From Polyangiales bacterium (lineage in GTDB: Bacteria; Myxococcota_A; Polyangia; Polyangiales; Ga0077539): DNA of 64,000 nucleotides. The DNA is taken from the NCBI GenBank assembly GCA_044229975.1, contig JBGARZ010000010.1, positions 64,001 through 128,000 of the forward strand. The letters are read 5' to 3'. Position 1 is the stretch's first letter; every line of letters begins with the position of its first letter. The notes under the pieces were generated by a model, which searched no databases, was not told the DNA's origin, and saw only the letters and a program-made list of their open reading frames with translations. Shown piece by piece: positions 5,818 through 15,570 of the stretch. Position numbers and translations under genes: made by a program.

Positions 5818-6627
<810 letters not shown>

Positions 6628-6665
6628 CGGTCGCGCCGCGGCGGATTACCCGTCCGGCCACTCCA

Positions 6666-7043
6666 ATGCCTACCTACTCCTATCAGTGCAGCGCCTGCGG
6701 TCACGCCTTCGAGCAGGTTCAGCGCATGAGCGACGACCCGACGAAGGTGTGTCCCTCGTGCGGGGTCGAGGCGGTGCGGCGGCTCATCAACTCCGCCAAC
6801 TTCATCCTCAAGGGCTCCGGCTGGTACGCCGACCTTTACAGCGGCGGCTCCAACAAGAAGAGCGAGAGCAGCGGCAGCAAGGTCGGCTCCAACGTCGCGA
6901 CGCCCGCCACGGGTGACGCGTCGAGCTCGTCATCGAGCGGCGACGGTGCGGCGAGCAGCACGAGCAGCAGTGACAGCAGCAGCGCGGGGTCGAGCACCAC
7001 GGCCGCAGCCCCCCCTCCTCCCTCCACCACCAAGACGAGCTGA
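6666..7043 (+). CDS. FmdB family zinc-ribbon regulatory protein
   Basis: MPTYSYQCSACGHAFE...CPSCG...FILKGSGWY plus a Ser-rich tail. Confidence 0.9.
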   Translation: MPTYSYQCSACGHAFEQVQRMSDDPTKVCPSCGVEAVRRLINSANFILKGSGWYADLYSGGSNKKSESSGSKVGSNVATPATGDASSSSSSGDGAASSTSSSDSSSAGSSTTAAAPPPPSTTKTS

Positions 7044-7051
7044 GACCTCAC

Positions 7052-7369
7052 ATGGCGATTCTCAACGAGGAATGGCAGCAGCTTCTCGCGGACTACCGCG
7101 AGTACCACGACGACTTCATCTGCGAGGCGACGCACCTCGTGGGCATCCCGATGATCATGGCGTCGATCCCCGCGATGATCATTCCCCCGGTGGGCATCGG
7201 CCTCTTCGCCGCGGGGTGGACGCTCCAGGGCATCGGGCACGTGTCCAAGGGCAATCCGCCGAAGTTCTTCGGCGACAAGCGCAACCTGCTGGTGGGCGCC
7301 ATCTGGTGGTTCGACACCGTGCTGCGCCCGGTGGGCCTCGGCGAGCCGCTCTTCGGCAAGCGTGCGTAG
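7052..7369 (+). CDS. DUF962 / Mpo1-like membrane protein
   Basis: YREYH...THLVGIP...GWTLQGIGH..KGNPP.FF His motifs. Confidence 0.8.
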   Translation: MAILNEEWQQLLADYREYHDDFICEATHLVGIPMIMASIPAMIIPPVGIGLFAAGWTLQGIGHVSKGNPPKFFGDKRNLLVGAIWWFDTVLRPVGLGEPLFGKRA

Positions 7370-7574: not shown

Positions 7575-10500
7575 ATGACCCACGCCTCACACTCGCTCGT
7601 CGCCGAGCGCGAGACTCCGCTCGCCCCGTGGCCCAACCACAACGACCTCGTCTCCGCTCTCGCCGAGCACGTCACACGCTACGGGAGCGTCTTTCGCCTC
7701 CCCGCCTTTCGCCCGACGTACGTGCTCAGCGGAGCAGAGGGCATGCGGGTGATGGACGACCTCCAGCACGTCGAACGCACGCTCGTCGTGATGCCGCCCG
7801 ACGCGCACCTGCTGCTCGCCAACGACGGCATCGGTCCGCTCAGCTCCACCGACGGCGCGGAGCACTTCCGCCGGCTCTCCGCGTGGGTCTCGCCCGACGC
7901 GCTCGACCCCGCGGGGCTCGCGGCGTCGTTTCAACGCATCCAACGCAGCGTCGACGACATCCTCTCGGGATGGGAGCGCCTCGGGCTCTTCTCGCTCGCG
8001 CTGGAGGTGCAGCGGGCGACGTGGCGCCTCTCGACGATGCTCCTGCTCGGGCGCGAGGCCGAAGGTCACCGGCTGGTCGACGTCGACACCCGCTCGAAGT
8101 CGACGCAGGCGTCCGAGCGTGAGGCCGCCAAGGCGCGGCTGCTCGCGTGGCTCGATGGTGAGGCCGCGGAGTTCGAGGGTGGCAGCGCCCGCGCGCCGTG
8201 GTGCCTGGGCGCGAAGCTCGCCGCCGCCGGAACGCTGTCGCGCGCTGAGCTCGTCAACGAGATCAACCACGGGCTGACCGCGGGGATGTTCGGGTGCGTT
8301 CCGACCACCGAGGCGTTGCACCGACTCTGCCGCGACCGCGAGCTGCTGGCCGAGCTCCGCGCCGAGCACCGCGCCCTCGGCGGTGACATTTCACTCGCAG
8401 CCCTGCGCCGCACGCCGAAGCTCCTCAAGCTCATCGACGAATCGCTGCGCCTCACTACGCCGGTTCCGCTGCTCTACGCCCGCGCGAAGCACGACTTCCT
8501 CATCGACGGCGTGCTCATCCCGGCGGGCGCGACGCTGCTCGGCGCCGCCCAAGCGACCAACCAGGACGCCGGCTTCGTGTCGACCGCGCACGACAAACAC
8601 GTCGCGTCGCCCGCGGCCAACATCGCCTTCGGCATCGGCCGCCACTGGTGCCCCGCGGCCAACGTCGCGACCGTCTCCATGTGGCTGCTCGCGACGAAGC
8701 TCCTCGCTTCGTACGACCTGCGCGCCCTCGACGAGACCGACATCCCGGTGCGCCGGGCGAGCGGACTCTCCGCGCCGCGGGGCGCCTGGGTGCGCTTCGG
8801 CCGCGGAACCCTCGATGGCCCCATGCACGCCGCCGCGAAGCGCGCCCCCACGCTGCCGACGCCCGCGGCGGACGACGCGTCGCCGCCGCCCGACCTCGAC
8901 GCGCGCATCGCGATCGTGGGCGCGGGCATCACCGGGCTCACCGTCGCGCATGAGCTGCGCAAGCGGGGCTTTCGGCACGTCACGGTGTTCGAGGGGGCGC
9001 CCTCGGTGGGCGGCAAGGCGGATACGGTTCACGTCGATGGGCGGCCGTACAACCTGGGCGCGCACCTCTGCCACGGCAGCCTCGGCGTCGCGGCGCTCGC
9101 GAAGGACGTCGGCGTCGCGATGGAGCGAACGACCTCCTACGCGCTCTGGGACATCGACCACAACCGCGCGGTGCCGCGCCGTTATCAAGACCTCGCGGAG
9201 TTCGACAAGCTGCGTCGGTGGATCGCCGCGCGCCCCGAGCTGACCCGCGAGGCGGGCTTCGCGGCCGAGGCCGAGACCTACCCCGTGGTCGACCGCTGGC
9301 TCGCCGCCAACGACCTCGGGGGATTGCGCGAGGTGGGGCCGTTCTTCACCGGCGCGGGCTATGGCTTCATGGACGAGGACGTGCCGGCGGCGTTCTTCCT
9401 GAAGTTTGCGCAGCACATGGCCGAGGAGGGGTGGACCCCGTCGGGCGGCTACAAGCACCTGCTGGAGACCGTGAGCCGCGGGCTCGATGTGCGCTGCGCG
9501 ACGACGGTCGAGCGCGTCGTGCGAACGAAGGGCGAGGGCGTCCGGCTGACGACGCGCGCTGCCGGAGAAGAGGCGCGGACGGAGACCTTCGACCGGCTGG
9601 TGCTCACCGGGCCGCTGGAGCACGCGCACCGCTACCTCGATCAGAGCGACGAGGAGTCGGCGCTGTTTTCGCGGGTTCGTTCGGACGAGTACTACACGGT
9701 GCTCGCCACGCTCGACGTCGCGTCGCCCCACGCGGCGGGGCTCTACATCGTGCCCGGCAACACCGCGACGCGGGGCGAAGGCGGTCGCACCACGGCCTTC
9801 GTCCGCATGTACGACGAGAGCCGCGTCTATCACTTCTTCGGCTACGGCGTGCCTGGTCAGAGCGACGAGTCCATCCTCGAACGGGTGCGCGCCGACGCCC
9901 GCTCGCTCGGCGGCGAGATCACCGAGGTGCACGTATTCCGCAAGTGGGCCTATGCGCCGCGCGTCTCGCCGCACGACATGGCGCTCGGCTTCCACGCGAA
10001 GCTCGATCGCCTCCAGGGGCGCGCGGGCACCTACTACGCGGGGAGCCTCCTGGCCTTCGAGCTCACCGACCACAACGTGCTCTTCGCGCAGAGCCTCGTC
10101 GCGCGCTTCTTCTCCCCCGACGCCGCGCGCCCCGCGGTCGACGCGCCCGTCGCCAGTGACCCGCTGTGCCGGGTACCCGAGCGCGGAACGTCGTCCATCC
10201 TCGACGTGCTCCGCGAGCGCTACGAGCGCACGCCCGACGCGCCGGTGACCACCTTCCTCGACGCCAGGGGCAAGGAGGTGCGCACGCTCACGTACCGCGG
10301 TCTCGTCGAGCGCGCGACGGCCTGCGCGGTGGCCCTCGGCGATGCGAGCGTGCGGGACGGCGACCGCGTCGCGCTGGTGTACCCGCCCGACACCGATGAG
10401 TTTCTCGTGGGCTTCTTCGGGTGCCTGTTGGCGGGCGCCGTGGCGGTGCCCATCGCGTCGCCCGACCCGCGCGCGCTCGACGTCGAGGTGCCGCGCTTCG

Positions 10501-13028
10501 CCCACCTCATCGGCGACTGCGGCTGCCGCGTGGCGCTCACCACCCGGCTCTACTACGGCGCCGCGCTCGTCGGCCGCGCGTGGCACCGCCTCACCGGCCG
10601 CGCCGCGGCGACGCCCGCGAAGTGGCCCGACCTCACCTGGATTCGCACCGACGGCCTGTCGCCCATCGCGCCGACCGCGCGCCGACCCATCCCCTCGGCG
10701 CCGGCCGACAAGCTCGCGTACCTGCAATACACGTCCGGATCGACCTCCGCGCCGAAGGGCGTGATGATCCGCCACGGCAACATCCTCCACAACGTCGAGG
10801 CCATCCGCCGCCAGGCGCACATGACCGCGCGCTCGGTGCTGGTCGGGTGGGTTCCGCTCTTCCACGACATGGGCCTCGTGGGCGGACCGCTCAACGCCAT
10901 CTACACGGGCGCGCACCTCATCTACTTCTCGCCGATGAGCTTCCTCCAGAACCCGCGGCTCTGGCTCGAAGCCATGAGCCGCTACCGCGCGACGCACACC
11001 GAGAGCCCCAACTTCGGGTACGAGTTTCTGCTGCGGCGCATCGAGGGTGATCCCCTCGACGGCATCGACCTCTCGCGCGTGACGCACGCCCTCTTCGGCG
11101 GCGAGGTGATGCGCCCCCGAACCGTCGAGCGGGTGGCCGAACGACTGCACAAGACCGGCTTCCGCCCGTCGGCGATGATCAACATCTTCGGCGCCGCGGA
11201 GGCCACGCTCTTCCTCGCGGGCGGCGGCGACGGCGAGACCCCGCTGCTGTCCGTCGTGACGCAGCCGCTCCAGGCGCAGCGCCGCGCGGTGCCGTGCGCG
11301 CCCGATGCGTTCTCCTCCACCACGCTCGTCGGGTGCCGTGTCCCGCCCGACGCGTGCGACCTGCGCGTAGTCGACCCCGAGAGCACGCGTCTCCTGCCCG
11401 ACCGCGAGGTGGGCGAGGTGTGGCTCTCCTCGCCCTCGGTCGCCGAAGGCTACTGGGGCCGCTCGCGCGAGGACAACGACCGCACCTTCCGCGCACGCGT
11501 CGCAGGCGACCCATCTCCGGCTCGAACCTACCTCCGCACGGGCGACCTGGGCTTCATCGACCGCGGCGTCGTCTACCTCTGCGGGCGCTTCAAGGAGATG
11601 ATGATCTTCGAGGGCCGCAACATCTATCCCATGGACGTCGAGGCGAGCGTGATGAACGCCCACCCCGCCATCCGCCAGGGCTGCGTCGCGGCGTTCTCGG
11701 TGGAGGAGGGCGAGCAGGAGAAGCTGGTCATCGTCGCCGAGCTCAAGGCCAACGGCGCCGCCCACTCCGCCGCCGCGGCGTCGGCGATCGCGCTCACCGT
11801 CGCGACGCAGCACCGCCTCACCTGCAAGGCCGTGCTGCTCGTGAAGACCAACTCCCTGCCGAAGACCAGCAGCGGCAAGCTCCAGCGCTACAAGGCCCGC
11901 GAGCTCTACCTCGCACGCCTCCTCGACGTCCTGCACACGCAGTCCGCCGACGCCGTCGTCGCTCCCTCCGACGCACCCATGGAGACGGTCGTCGACGACC
12001 TCAAGAGCCCTGTCTTCGCAGGCGACGTGGGCGACACCCGCCGCTGGCTGCAACGGCTCGTCGCCTCGGCGCTGCACGTCCCCGCCGAGGAAATCGACCC
12101 GACGGTCGCGCTCTCGCTCTACGGCGTCGAGTCGGCGCAGGCGCTGTCGATGGTGGTGAAGCTCTCGGAGTACGTCGGCCGGGACGTCGCGCCGTCGGTG
12201 CTGTTCGAGCACCAGACCGTCGACGAGCTCGCGGCCTACCTCTGCGGCGAGGAGCGGCCCTTGAGTCGCGTGCTCGTCCCGCTGCAACGCGGCGAGCCGG
12301 GGCGTTCGCGGACGCTGTTCTGCGTGCACCCGGTGGGCGGCAGCGCGATGGCCTACCTCGGGCTGGTGAAGCACCTGCCCGAGCACGTCCCCGTGTACGC
12401 CTTCGACAGCGACGGGGCGGAGGTTCCGTGCGACGACCTCGTGGAGATGGCGCGGCGCTACGTCGCGGAGATGCAGGTGGTGCAGCCCGATGGGCCGTAC
12501 ACCCTCGTCGGCTACTCCTTCGGCGGAACCGTCGCCTTCGAGATGGCCCGCCAGATGATCGCGGCGGGCCTCACGGTGGAGGGGCTCTTCATGATCGACG
12601 CGCCCGCGCCGCTCGCCGCCGAGGGCGCGGTCGAGTCGGCGCCGCACCCGCAGGAGGCCGAGACCTACGCGCGCTTCCTGGCGTCGGCGATGCTCAACCG
12701 CATCGTCTCCGACGAGCTCGACGACGACGCGCGCGACCGGCTGCGCGAGCGCGTCGAGCAGAACCACCAGGCCCACGCCCGCTACCGCGTGGGGCGGGGC
12801 GAGCGCGGGTCGTCGCCGGAGATCACGTTCTTCCGCGCGGCGGACGAAGCACCCAACCTGCGTGACCACCTGCGGCACCCGGCCTTCGACGCGCCCGACT
12901 TCGGCTGGTCGCAGGTCTCGCCCGACGCCCCGGTGCGCGTCGCCACGGTGCCCGGTGATCACTTCAGCGTGATGCGCGAACCCGCCGCGCTCGCGTCGCT
13001 GCTGGCCGAGGCGATCGGCCCGTCGTGA
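7575..13028 (+). CDS. Five-domain fusion enzyme: P450 - FAD oxidoreductase (PUFA-isomerase-like) - fatty acyl-AMP ligase - ACP - thioesterase
   Basis: P450 (~7575-8810): ESLR and FGIGRHWC. FAD domain (~8895-10112): IAIVGAGITG..E....VGGK. FAAL (~10190-11930): YLQYTSGST, FHDMGL, YLRTGDLG, PKTSSGK. ACP (~12030-12250): YGVES. TE (~12260-13025): GYSFG, GDHF. Confidence 0.9.
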   Translation: MTHASHSLVAERETPLAPWPNHNDLVSALAEHVTRYGSVFRLPAFRPTYVLSGAEGMRVMDDLQHVERTLVVMPPDAHLLLANDGIGPLSSTDGAEHFRRLSAWVSPDALDPAGLAASFQRIQRSVDDILSGWERLGLFSLALEVQRATWRLSTMLLLGREAEGHRLVDVDTRSKSTQASEREAAKARLLAWLDGEAAEFEGGSARAPWCLGAKLAAAGTLSRAELVNEINHGLTAGMFGCVPTTEALHRLCRDRELLAELRAEHRALGGDISLAALRRTPKLLKLIDESLRLTTPVPLLYARAKHDFLIDGVLIPAGATLLGAAQATNQDAGFVSTAHDKHVASPAANIAFGIGRHWCPAANVATVSMWLLATKLLASYDLRALDETDIPVRRASGLSAPRGAWVRFGRGTLDGPMHAAAKRAPTLPTPAADDASPPPDLDARIAIVGAGITGLTVAHELRKRGFRHVTVFEGAPSVGGKADTVHVDGRPYNLGAHLCHGSLGVAALAKDVGVAMERTTSYALWDIDHNRAVPRRYQDLAEFDKLRRWIAARPELTREAGFAAEAETYPVVDRWLAANDLGGLREVGPFFTGAGYGFMDEDVPAAFFLKFAQHMAEEGWTPSGGYKHLLETVSRGLDVRCATTVERVVRTKGEGVRLTTRAAGEEARTETFDRLVLTGPLEHAHRYLDQSDEESALFSRVRSDEYYTVLATLDVASPHAAGLYIVPGNTATRGEGGRTTAFVRMYDESRVYHFFGYGVPGQSDESILERVRADARSLGGEITEVHVFRKWAYAPRVSPHDMALGFHAKLDRLQGRAGTYYAGSLLAFELTDHNVLFAQSLVARFFSPDAARPAVDAPVASDPLCRVPERGTSSILDVLRERYERTPDAPVTTFLDARGKEVRTLTYRGLVERATACAVALGDASVRDGDRVALVYPPDTDEFLVGFFGCLLAGAVAVPIASPDPRALDVEVPRFAHLIGDCGCRVALTTRLYYGAALVGRAWHRLTGRAAATPAKWPDLTWIRTDGLSPIAPTARRPIPSAPADKLAYLQYTSGSTSAPKGVMIRHGNILHNVEAIRRQAHMTARSVLVGWVPLFHDMGLVGGPLNAIYTGAHLIYFSPMSFLQNPRLWLEAMSRYRATHTESPNFGYEFLLRRIEGDPLDGIDLSRVTHALFGGEVMRPRTVERVAERLHKTGFRPSAMINIFGAAEATLFLAGGGDGETPLLSVVTQPLQAQRRAVPCAPDAFSSTTLVGCRVPPDACDLRVVDPESTRLLPDREVGEVWLSSPSVAEGYWGRSREDNDRTFRARVAGDPSPARTYLRTGDLGFIDRGVVYLCGRFKEMMIFEGRNIYPMDVEASVMNAHPAIRQGCVAAFSVEEGEQEKLVIVAELKANGAAHSAAAASAIALTVATQHRLTCKAVLLVKTNSLPKTSSGKLQRYKARELYLARLLDVLHTQSADAVVAPSDAPMETVVDDLKSPVFAGDVGDTRRWLQRLVASALHVPAEEIDPTVALSLYGVESAQALSMVVKLSEYVGRDVAPSVLFEHQTVDELAAYLCGEERPLSRVLVPLQRGEPGRSRTLFCVHPVGGSAMAYLGLVKHLPEHVPVYAFDSDGAEVPCDDLVEMARRYVAEMQVVQPDGPYTLVGYSFGGTVAFEMARQMIAAGLTVEGLFMIDAPAPLAAEGAVESAPHPQEAETYARFLASAMLNRIVSDELDDDARDRLRERVEQNHQAHARYRVGRGERGSSPEITFFRAADEAPNLRDHLRHPAFDAPDFGWSQVSPDAPVRVATVPGDHFSVMREPAALASLLAEAIGPS

Positions 13029-14423
13029 GCGGCGCACCCGCCACCCTCGCGCGCATCGCCGACCTGCCGGGACCGCGGCCGCTGCCGCTCGTGGGCAACG
13101 TCCTCCAGGTCTCGGTGCCGCGCATCCACCAACACCTGGAGGCGTGGGCCCGCGAGTACGGCGACCGCTACGCCTTCCGCCTCGGGCCGCGCGCCTTCGC
13201 GGTCGTCTCCGACCCGGAGACCGTGCAGCTCACCCTGCGCAACCGACCGCGCGGCTTCAACAAGTCGGGCGCCGAGCGCATCTGCGAGGAGCTCGGCATC
13301 CCAGGGCCCATCTCCGCCGAGGGCAGGCAGTGGCAGCGGCAGCGTCGGCTGGTGACGGCCGCGCTCTCGCACGAGCACCTCGGCGCCTTCTACGCGACGC
13401 TGGCGGGCGCGACGGCGACGCCTCGTCGAGCGGCTCAGGGCGCGCGCGGGCGAGACCATCGACGTGCAGGCCGAGCTCATGCGGCTGCTGGTGGAGGCCA
13501 CGACGGCGCTCGCCTTCGGCCGCGAGCTCGGCGACGTCGGGGGCGACGCGATACAGCGGCACCTCGATCGGGTGTTCACGAAGCTGATGAGCCGGCTGAC
13601 GGCCCCGGCGCCGTACTGGCGGCTCGTGCGGCTGCCCTCCGACCGCGCGGTCGACGACGCCGTCGCGCAGCTTCGCGGGATGTTCGAGGGGCTCATCGCG
13701 GAGGAGCGCGCGTGGCTCGCGGGCGAGGGGAAGGGCGCCGCGCCGCGCAGCTTCATGGCGGCCATGCTCGCCGCGCGCGACGAGGACGGCGCGGCCTTCG
13801 ACGAGCCGGTGATCTTCGGCAACCTCGTGCAGATCTTGATGGCGGGCGAGGACACCACCGCCAACACCATCTCGTGGGCCGTGCACCACCTCTGCGACGC
13901 GCCGGACGACGTCACCGCGTTGCGCGCCGAGGCCGAGCGGGTGCTGGGGGACGCGAGGGTTCCGCCGACGCTGGAGGCCGCCCAGGCGCTGGCCTACGCC
14001 GGGGCGTGCGCCAACGAGGCGATGCGGCTGCGCCCGGTGCTCCCGGTGCACTTCTTCACGGCCAACGAGGGCGCCGACCTGCCGGGGCTGCGCGTCGAGG
14101 CGGGCGAGCACCTCATCGTGCTGACCCGACCGGCGGGTCTCGATCCGCGCGACGTGGCGCGGCCGATGGAGTTCGCGCCGGAACGCTGGTCCGACCTGGG
14201 CGTCGCGGCGGAGTGGCAGAAGCGAGGGGTGTACGTCCCCTTCGGGTCGGGCGCGCGCCTCTGCGCCGGGCGCACGCTCGCGCTGCTGGAGATGCGCGTC
14301 GTGCTGGGCGCGCTCTACCGCAACTTCCACGTCGAGCGCGTCGGCCGCAGCGAGGACGTCAGCGAAGAACTCCAGATGACGATGCGCCCGGTGGGCCTGC
14401 GCGTGCGGCTGCGACCGCACTGA
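13025..14423 (+). pseudogene. Cytochrome P450 interrupted by a single +1 frameshift near 13415-13418 (pseudogene or sequencing error)
   Basis: The N-terminal frame gives LPGPRPLPLVGN...WQRQRRL. The other frame continues RLVERLR...AGEDTT, EAMR, FAPERW, FGSGARLCAG. Removing one base restores a ~465-aa P450. Confidence 0.85.
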
Positions 14424-14439: not shown

Positions 14440-15504
14440 TCACTCCGTCCGTAGGTCCACCGGCGGCGCCTGGCGCGCCCACTCCAGCAGCACGTCGACG
14501 TCGCTCGGTGCGCCCGCCGCGCAGCGTCGACCGCCCGCCCGCAGCGCCCGCGCGCCCGCCTCCACCCGTCGCCGAACCGCCTCCGCCCCGACGCCCCACA
14601 GCCGCGCGCACACCACCCGCTCGAAGGTCGCGGCCACGTCCGCCGCGCCGTCGCGCGTCGTCGCCACCACGTCGCTCGCGCTCGTCATCCGCGGGCACCG
14701 CTCGCGGTCCGATCGCTTCGCCGCCGCGTCGTCGAGTCGAAAGCCGCCGCCCGTGACCGAGTGCACCGCCAGCAACGGCCCCACCGCGGTGTGCGGTGCC
14801 TCCCCGCACGGCCCCGGCGCCTCGCTCACGTAGCGCTCGTGCGTGAGCAGGTCGGGCCGCCCGTCGCCGTCGACGTCGCGCACCGCGGCCACCACCCACG
14901 CGCGCGACGGGGCGTACACGTCCACCGCGCCCTCGCGGAAGGACCACACGCGACCGTGGGCGGTGCTCGCCGCGCCGTGCCGCTCCGTCGCCACCCTCAC
15001 GAACACCTCGGGCTCCCCATCGCTGTCGTAGTCGAAGGTCGACAGCGTTCCGACGGAGACGCACTCGTCGCCCGCGGCGCACACGAGGTTGCCCTCGGGG
15101 CCCGTGACTCCATCGCTCCACGGGCGCACCGACGTTCGTGTCCCGTTCGCGGCCACGTGCACCAGCGAGAACGTCCCCGTCAGCGTCTCCGCCCGCGTGT
15201 CGGGGTCGCGCTCCACGGCGAGCGCGTCGACGTGCAGCGCCCACGCGCCCGTCGGGGTCGTCACGCACTGATCGAGCGCCGCGAGCGTCGGCCACGTCGT
15301 CGCGGGGCGCGCGCCGAGGGCTCGCGCGACGGTGGCCCGCGACTCGGCCTGGAGGGCATCGCACCGCGCCGTCGACGGAGCGGCGGGGCGACGACGACGG
15401 CGTCGGCGACGGGCGACGGTGGCCTCGGCGTTCGGGTCCGCCGGGGTCGGGGCGGCGGCGCATCCGACGAGGGCGAGCGCGATGAGGCAGCGAGCGAGGA
15501 GCAC
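14440..15504 (-). CDS. Hypothetical lipoprotein with FG-GAP/VCBS-like Ca-binding motifs
   Basis: Lipobox LVGC; DYDSDGEPE and DVDGDGRPDL motifs. Confidence 0.6.
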   Translation of the reverse strand: MLLARCLIALALVGCAAAPTPADPNAEATVARRRRRRRRPAAPSTARCDALQAESRATVARALGARPATTWPTLAALDQCVTTPTGAWALHVDALAVERDPDTRAETLTGTFSLVHVAANGTRTSVRPWSDGVTGPEGNLVCAAGDECVSVGTLSTFDYDSDGEPEVFVRVATERHGAASTAHGRVWSFREGAVDVYAPSRAWVVAAVRDVDGDGRPDLLTHERYVSEAPGPCGEAPHTAVGPLLAVHSVTGGGFRLDDAAAKRSDRERCPRMTSASDVVATTRDGAADVAATFERVVCARLWGVGAEAVRRRVEAGARALRAGGRRCAAGAPSDVDVLLEWARQAPPVDLRTE

Positions 15505-15570
15505 GGCGGCGGGCGCGGACTCTACCGCAACGGCTTATGCGCTAGCGCGAGAGGCGGTAGGGTCGACTCG

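Follow-up and report, generated by a model that had tools for sequence, protein, structure and literature searches.

A Thr-less, His-type cytochrome P450 domain leads a flavin-FAAL-ACP-thioesterase megaenzyme and may use acyl peroxides without a reductase

What chemistry is to be expected of a cytochrome P450 domain that lacks the residue pair used for O2 activation and is built into a fatty-acyl megaenzyme? This question is raised by an ORF (7575-13028, + strand) in a 64,000-nucleotide stretch of DNA from a Polyangiales bacterium (hereafter, the window), which encodes an 1817-aa fusion whose residues 1-412 match PF00067 (E = 7e-15). The original prediction had taken this domain for a noncanonical P450 with CYP74-like, hydroperoxide-rearranging traits, of a peroxide-driven or isomerase type or degenerate. 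A Pfam scan of the ORF gave the domain order P450, PAI-like flavin, FAAL, ACP, and thioesterase (Table 1). The best PDB match of the flavin domain was far ahead of the runner-up, which reached only 1.7e-7. For the ligase, FAAL models ranked at the top in NCBIfam, yet under their cut-offs. The FAAL, the ACP serine, and the thioesterase Ser and His are all present, as in FAAL-ACP-TE fatty-acyl tailoring systems. The key pieces of the P450 (helix I, ExxR, meander, and Cys) showed zero to one difference per piece against contigs of runs X1 and X2, which come from two studies; one of the runs may be the source sample.

Table 1. Features of the fusion ORF and the adjoining second P450 (positions in the window)
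Feature	Position	Strand	Evidence
Thr-less, His-type cytochrome P450 domain (aa 1-412)	7575..8810	+	PF00067; AF2 pLDDT 92.3; CYP120A1 fold Z 37.4
Helix C HxxxR: His97 kept, Arg101 replaced by Leu	7863..7877	+	alignment of 13 close copies
Helix I: Glu229, conserved His232, Phe239-Gly240 at acid-Thr positions, conserved Pro243	8259..8303	+	profile alignments
ExxR (ESLR) and the strand after it	8439..8498	+	sequence
Shortened meander, PERF absent	8559..8627	+	alignment; model pLDDT
Heme loop FGIGRHWCPAA with Cys359, CYP74-type insertion absent	8628..8660	+	compared with AOS loop
FAD domain, related to P. acnes PAI	8898..10118	+	PDB 2B9W, E 4e-28; PF01593
FAAL domain	10188..11930	+	PF00501; NCBIfam FAAL models
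Acyl carrier protein, Ser1520	12042..12242	+	PF00550; motif
Thioesterase, Ser1648 and His1796	12309..12998	+	PF00975; motifs
Canonical P450 (AGEDTT), frameshifted near 13410-13425	13025..14423	+	overlaps stop codon of fusion

The ExxR motif (ESLR, residues 289-292) and the heme cysteine (Cys359, within FGIGRHWCPAA at 352-362) are both present, as originally predicted. The helix-I segment EINHGLTAGMFGC (229-241) was said to be without an acid-Thr pair, and Phe239-Gly240 indeed stand at those positions in profile alignments carried via the sister family to CYP120A1. The meander, from which PERF had been reported missing, is only 23 residues long (329-351), where standalone His-type relatives have a median of 34, and the alanine noted two residues after the cysteine occupies a position that varies within the close clade (Ala in 8 of 13 copies, Gly in 5). 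Of the features of canonical monooxygenases, the window copy thus has the heme Cys and ExxR and lacks the acid-Thr pair, PERF, and the HxxxR of helix C, whose Arg binds a heme propionate. AlphaFold, run with an 89-row alignment, predicted a complete P450 fold (mean pLDDT 92.3), in which residues 338-347, inside the shortened meander, were the sole internal segment with pLDDT below 50. The best fold match of this model was CYP120A1 (rmsd 2.8 over 390 aligned residues), followed by CYP725A4 (Z 36.0) and CYP152N1 (Z 34.5), and its F-G region is short (median 43 vs. 56 residues). An Atlas search returned generic P450 clusters only.

The nearest profile relatives of the fusion P450 are standalone P450s of a His type (prob 99.96, E = 9e-39), which share a helix-I E-x-x-H motif that His232 matches. 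A helix-I His occurs in 43 of the 71 standalone relatives, all 43 of which keep Cys and ExxR; the AGx[DE]T motif was present in 1 of these 43, compared to 19 of the 28 others, counted under a slightly looser pattern. The sister family's best PDB matches were CYP120A1 (E = 7e-90), CYP725A4, CYP51, CYP90B1, and CYP152. In two quick trees, whose rows were picked by similarity to the query and excluded P0019, P0020, and L012, the fusions formed one group (support 99 and 97) nested with CYP152-like proteins in a Thr-less group (support 100 and 92) of unresolved internal branching. Acid-Thr P450s stood apart. By profile and tree, the fusion P450 is placed as a descendant of an unnamed Thr-less, helix-I-His family near CYP152 and CYP120. 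The standalone Thr-less ExxH P450s (P0025-P0076, L002, and L136-L144) are widespread, have an invariant helix-I His, and are in some cases fused to TerB. We found no characterized member of this family, and no lipoxygenase was recognized by eye among the ORFs of 10 loci that carry one.

The fusion architecture recurs in at least 11 closely and 3 distantly related proteins. A search with the flavin domain yielded 15 long proteins, 11 of which were full length with the same domain order; the distant fusions P0021, P0023, and P0024, along with partial copies, came from searching 1.84 billion representatives with a profile. Copies of the fusion also lie on one metagenome contig and in the genomes of two Pseudomonadota. 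Within the order to which the window belongs (401 genomes), a close match was found only in the window's own genome, the other nine matches being standalone P450s. Alignment-based scans recovered 3 true relatives among 124 loci, locus scans with the flavin domain alone found none, and there was no standalone close form of the P450 among proteins of 226-721 aa (one weak match). Conservation does not extend to the genes next to the fusion in L011 and L012; in the former, from a Pseudomonadota host, the fusion (L011:5836-10506) is followed by a FabH-like gene and a gene for a thiamine-dependent enzyme. In P0023 (3739 aa), a KS-AT-DH-ER-KR-ACP module separates the first ACP from the thioesterase. 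A search by title and start of abstract, with most subscription journals outside its scope, found no published description of the architecture, and a fatty-acyl megaenzyme of this domain order is apparently undescribed so far.

In the genomes of two congeners, a homolog of 14440-15513 comes next after the Mpo1-like gene, and both the fusion and the second P450 are absent. These loci indicate that the fusion, together with the second P450, forms a lineage-specific inserted cassette. The Mpo1-like gene itself (7052-7369) was considered as a cassette member and rejected, since it occurs in six of eight congeners, whose loci are free of the fusion. It belongs to a block conserved in congeners (5818-7369: pspA, a small CxxC zinc-ribbon-like ORF, and the Mpo1-like gene), and the DNA after this block is a variable insertion site. 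Over 13368-13519, an independent X4 contig differed from the second P450 by one gap and no mismatch, and the frameshift there may therefore be an assembly error. The window's genome holds another split P450 (G000:C10:79979-81121).

What, then, might the fusion P450 do? Our preferred answer, which we put forward tentatively, is that it could well bind heme and use, with no reductase, a peroxide of an unsaturated fatty acyl chain carried by the ACP. The FAAL would charge Ser1520 with a (poly)unsaturated fatty acid or the hydroperoxide of one, and the PAI-like flavin domain would take a hydride from a diene and then either isomerize the diene or hand electrons to O2. The ferric heme would split the O-O bond, with His232 as a candidate distal polar residue, and the thioesterase would free an oxylipin-like acid. 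For the heme step, we lean somewhat toward a reaction that rearranges or cleaves an acyl hydroperoxide (AOS/HPL/EAS-like) rather than a peroxygenation driven by H2O2; the short F-G region would suit a tethered substrate. Consistent with a peroxide-using role, the acid-Thr pair is absent, and the Thr-less His-type relatives keep Cys and ExxR; the chemistry of that family we infer from sequence. In addition, 12 of 13 close copies (a set without L012, a near-copy of P0009, and without P0019, P0020, and the distant fusions) retain all three of His97, His232, and Cys359, and P0004 has lost all three. This joint retention and loss suggests selection on heme chemistry where the residues persist. Lipoxygenase matches lie at four loci of the window's genome, and none is in the cassette; neither of the two Pseudomonadota hosts, whose genome completeness is not given, has one, and the heme peroxidases there are on other contigs. 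Against peroxide chemistry stand the fast evolution of the P450, the loss of PERF and, in most close copies, of the ExxR Glu, the substitutions confined to the window copy, the lack of a lipoxygenase in the cassette and in those two hosts, and, in the sister megaenzymes described below, the residue changes of a catalase-related AOS-like domain and the scatter of its rows over more than one clade.

These sister megaenzymes emerged from the 401 genomes, where the three best non-self matches of the flavin domain were the long fusions L187, L188, and L189, one of them in the window's genome. In all three and in P0016, a catalase-related AOS-like (cAOS-like) domain directly precedes the flavin domain, in the slot held by the P450 here. 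Coral AOS (1U5U) is matched by L187 (E = 1.3e-25) and L189 (E = 1.6e-25), and the four cAOS-like domains share 49-63% identity with one another. The one slot before the flavin domain is, on these assignments, filled by two unrelated heme folds. The P450-linked rows formed one group (90) in the tree of the flavin domain, where the cAOS-linked rows lay nearby but not as one clade (3 changes). Since the cAOS-like domain occupies the same slot, a peroxide-using role of the P450 gains independent support. Among the coral AOS residues named in PMC5617202, L187 keeps Arg64, His67, and Tyr353 and has Phe for Thr66 and Thr for Asn137; with these two changes, its cAOS-like domain may not be an AOS. L187:7788-13166 (G000:C13) and L188, the latter near a fatty-acid desaturase, have the order FAAL-cAOS-PAI-ACP-acyltransferase; the partial L189 reads cAOS-PAI-ACP-hydrolase-TE, and P0016 reads FAAL-cAOS-PAI-ACP-TE with 584 unassigned residues. 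L177 was grouped with these four.

The main alternative, which we regard as a real possibility, if a doubtful one, is that the P450 is a relic, decaying or structural, whether throughout the close clade or in the window copy, while the flavin-FAAL-ACP-thioesterase part works alone, making, for example, a conjugated fatty acid. Among 11 close copies, mean identity is 0.46 for the P450, compared to 0.71 for the PAI-like and 0.75 for the FAAL domain; tree lengths are 5.81 vs. 2.48 and 1.91, such that the P450 evolves 2.3 and 3.0 times faster than these partners. The gap is smaller in the distant pair P0021/P0023 (0.42 vs. 0.55 and 0.52), which has kept ExxR and the meander. The ExxR Glu persists in 4 of the 13 close copies and PERF in none, both being retained in the distant fusions, and the residues lining the helix-I groove are not conserved. 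Individual copies have gone further: P0004 has Tyr for Cys at the heme ligand with the rest of the fusion intact, P0019 is without the Cys loop, and P0022 retains just a remnant of the P450 and has no flavin domain. The window copy is alone in R101L (the other 12 of the 13 close copies have Arg), with P120Q and H326Q likewise confined to it. On the other hand, a full fold is predicted, loss of the ExxR Glu may simply fit loss of its PERF partner, and His97, His232, His357, and Cys359 stand in 12 of 13 copies although only 55 of the 391 alignment columns show no variation across 11 copies. Were the domain decaying, the family would offer a graded series from intact enzyme to remnant.

We consider it improbable that the domain is an atypical monooxygenase that oxidizes an ACP-bound chain with O2, with its ferredoxin provided in trans and with proton delivery by His232 or the substrate. 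P450s that act on ACP-bound chains are known, BioI being an example, and this precedent fits, as do the nearest solved folds, CYP120A1 and CYP725A4, both of which are monooxygenases. No 2Fe-2S ferredoxin domain was found on the contig, as the original prediction had noted for the DNA it covered, but eight such domains lie elsewhere in the genome, in which PF13459 had no match. Conversely, the lack of a ferredoxin on the contig counts against this reading, the acid-Thr pair is absent, the domain groups with Thr-less peroxygenase-like proteins, and the meander, which sits on the proximal face where redox partners dock, is shortened.

That the fusion P450 truly belongs to the CYP74 clan, as a strongly diverged member, we judge very improbable, its profile matching His-type P450s at E = 9e-39 and the lipoxygenase-linked, CYP74-like set at only 4e-4 (prob 35). 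CYP74 enzymes have a nine-residue insertion in the heme-binding loop (PMC10813956, in part) and a helix-I FN321xxGG motif with Asn321 (PMC10813956 and PMC13049297, both in part). Membership is not supported by these motifs, as both the insertion, whose absence had been cautioned from the start, and the Asn are missing; by eye, the helix-I register of EINHGLTAGMFG puts Gly233 at the Asn321 position and has a G-M-x4-P spacing in common with AOS. CYP74 was not among the top 60 PDB sequence matches or the top 50 fold matches listed, and a scan of the retrieved proteins found no CYP74 heme-loop motif. The K-helix resemblance that had suggested CYP74 is real, with 10 of 20 residues identical to Arabidopsis AOS, but is not diagnostic: the same score is found in three of the 71 standalone relatives, and values among the 18 fusion rows run from 4 to 11. 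With CYP74-like proxies in place of authentic CYP74 and fungal dioxygenase-CYP sequences, the unconstrained tree sets the fusions and the proxies apart, although an AU test did not reject their grouping (p = 0.363). Of the original prediction, the noncanonical, Thr-less character and the range from peroxide or isomerase type to degenerate domain stand; kinship with CYP74 is not supported.

The same genome supplied a control P450 from outside the window (C39:206392-207738) that is adjacent to a lipoxygenase gene and reads FAASFNATGG in helix I. Its profile placed CYP74A at ranks 2-4 (E = 7e-5 to 2e-4); its model reached a pLDDT of 37 and was left out of comparisons. It is very divergent, with a lengthened Cys loop, and occurs in 4 of 401 genomes, all of one genus (orthologs L198-L200; lipoxygenase L201). 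The two genes are convergent in G000, the window's genome, and in G001, where the pair lies directly after the Mpo1-like gene, at the site of the window's cassette. This protein is a good candidate for a bacterial CYP74-like enzyme.

Returning to a peroxide-using fusion P450, a wider scheme is conceivable but on the unlikely side as a whole: a one-polypeptide, carrier-templated oxylipin line in which the PAI-like flavin domain makes or prepares the peroxide, and an interchangeable heme module (catalase-type AOS or new His-type P450) rearranges it, the ExxH standalones adding a peroxide-using family, so far undescribed, to CYP152 and CYP74. To our knowledge, the known hydroperoxide-rearranging heme enzymes use free fatty acids and occur beside lipoxygenases or dioxygenases. 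If the scheme held, bacterial oxylipins would have a new biosynthetic route in this thiotemplated version, which, with its two unrelated heme folds in one slot, would also exemplify the convergent replacement of domains, and a reductase-free His-type P450 independent of the substrate carboxylate would be of interest for biocatalysis.

Among known systems, CYP152 (P450 BSbeta, SPalpha, and OleT) is likewise Thr-less and falls in the same tree group, and the CYP152-like L158 has a helix I of equal length from the Glu to the helix end. The Arg-Pro motif with which CYP152 binds the substrate carboxylate in helix I (PMC5818669, in part) is absent here, Thr235-Ala236 standing in its place in an ungapped register with L158, and 12 of 13 close copies have no Arg. 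Unlike CYP152, the fusion P450 also has the conserved His232 and a fused FAAL-ACP, has no extended Cys loop, and has lost PERF. CYP120A1, a cyanobacterial retinoic acid hydroxylase, is the best match by structure and, for the sister family, also the top PDB hit, but it is a standalone protein with AGHET and a full meander. The flavin domain matches P. acnes PAI over its full length, with PAI Arg88 aligned to Arg518. Of Phe168 and Phe193, which belong to the PAI substrate pocket, the former aligns with Ala and the segment of the latter is deleted, and the domain here sits within a carrier-protein system. A proposed maracen cluster of Sorangium, described in part of PMC12800573 and cited in part of PMC13071607, resembles the locus by its gene list (a P450, two flavin amine oxidoreductases, a lipoxygenase, and an Mpo1-like gene); it differs in having separate genes, a PUFA synthase with a lipoxygenase, unproven tailoring steps, and no FAAL fusion in part 1 of 4 of its Table S7. 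Coral catalase-related AOS-LOX and fungal dioxygenase-CYP proteins likewise fuse a self-sufficient heme domain to a fatty-acid enzyme, but the partner here is a PAI-like flavoprotein with FAAL-ACP-TE in place of a lipoxygenase or heme dioxygenase. CYP74 (AOS, HPL, DES, and EAS), finally, also lacks the acid-Thr pair and performs hydroperoxide chemistry without a redox partner (PMC10813956, in part), which for the fusion P450 is only proposed; it differs in its nine-residue insertion, its Asn321 motif, and its nearest relatives. By its motifs, the fusion P450 is not a CYP74, yet it plausibly works like one.
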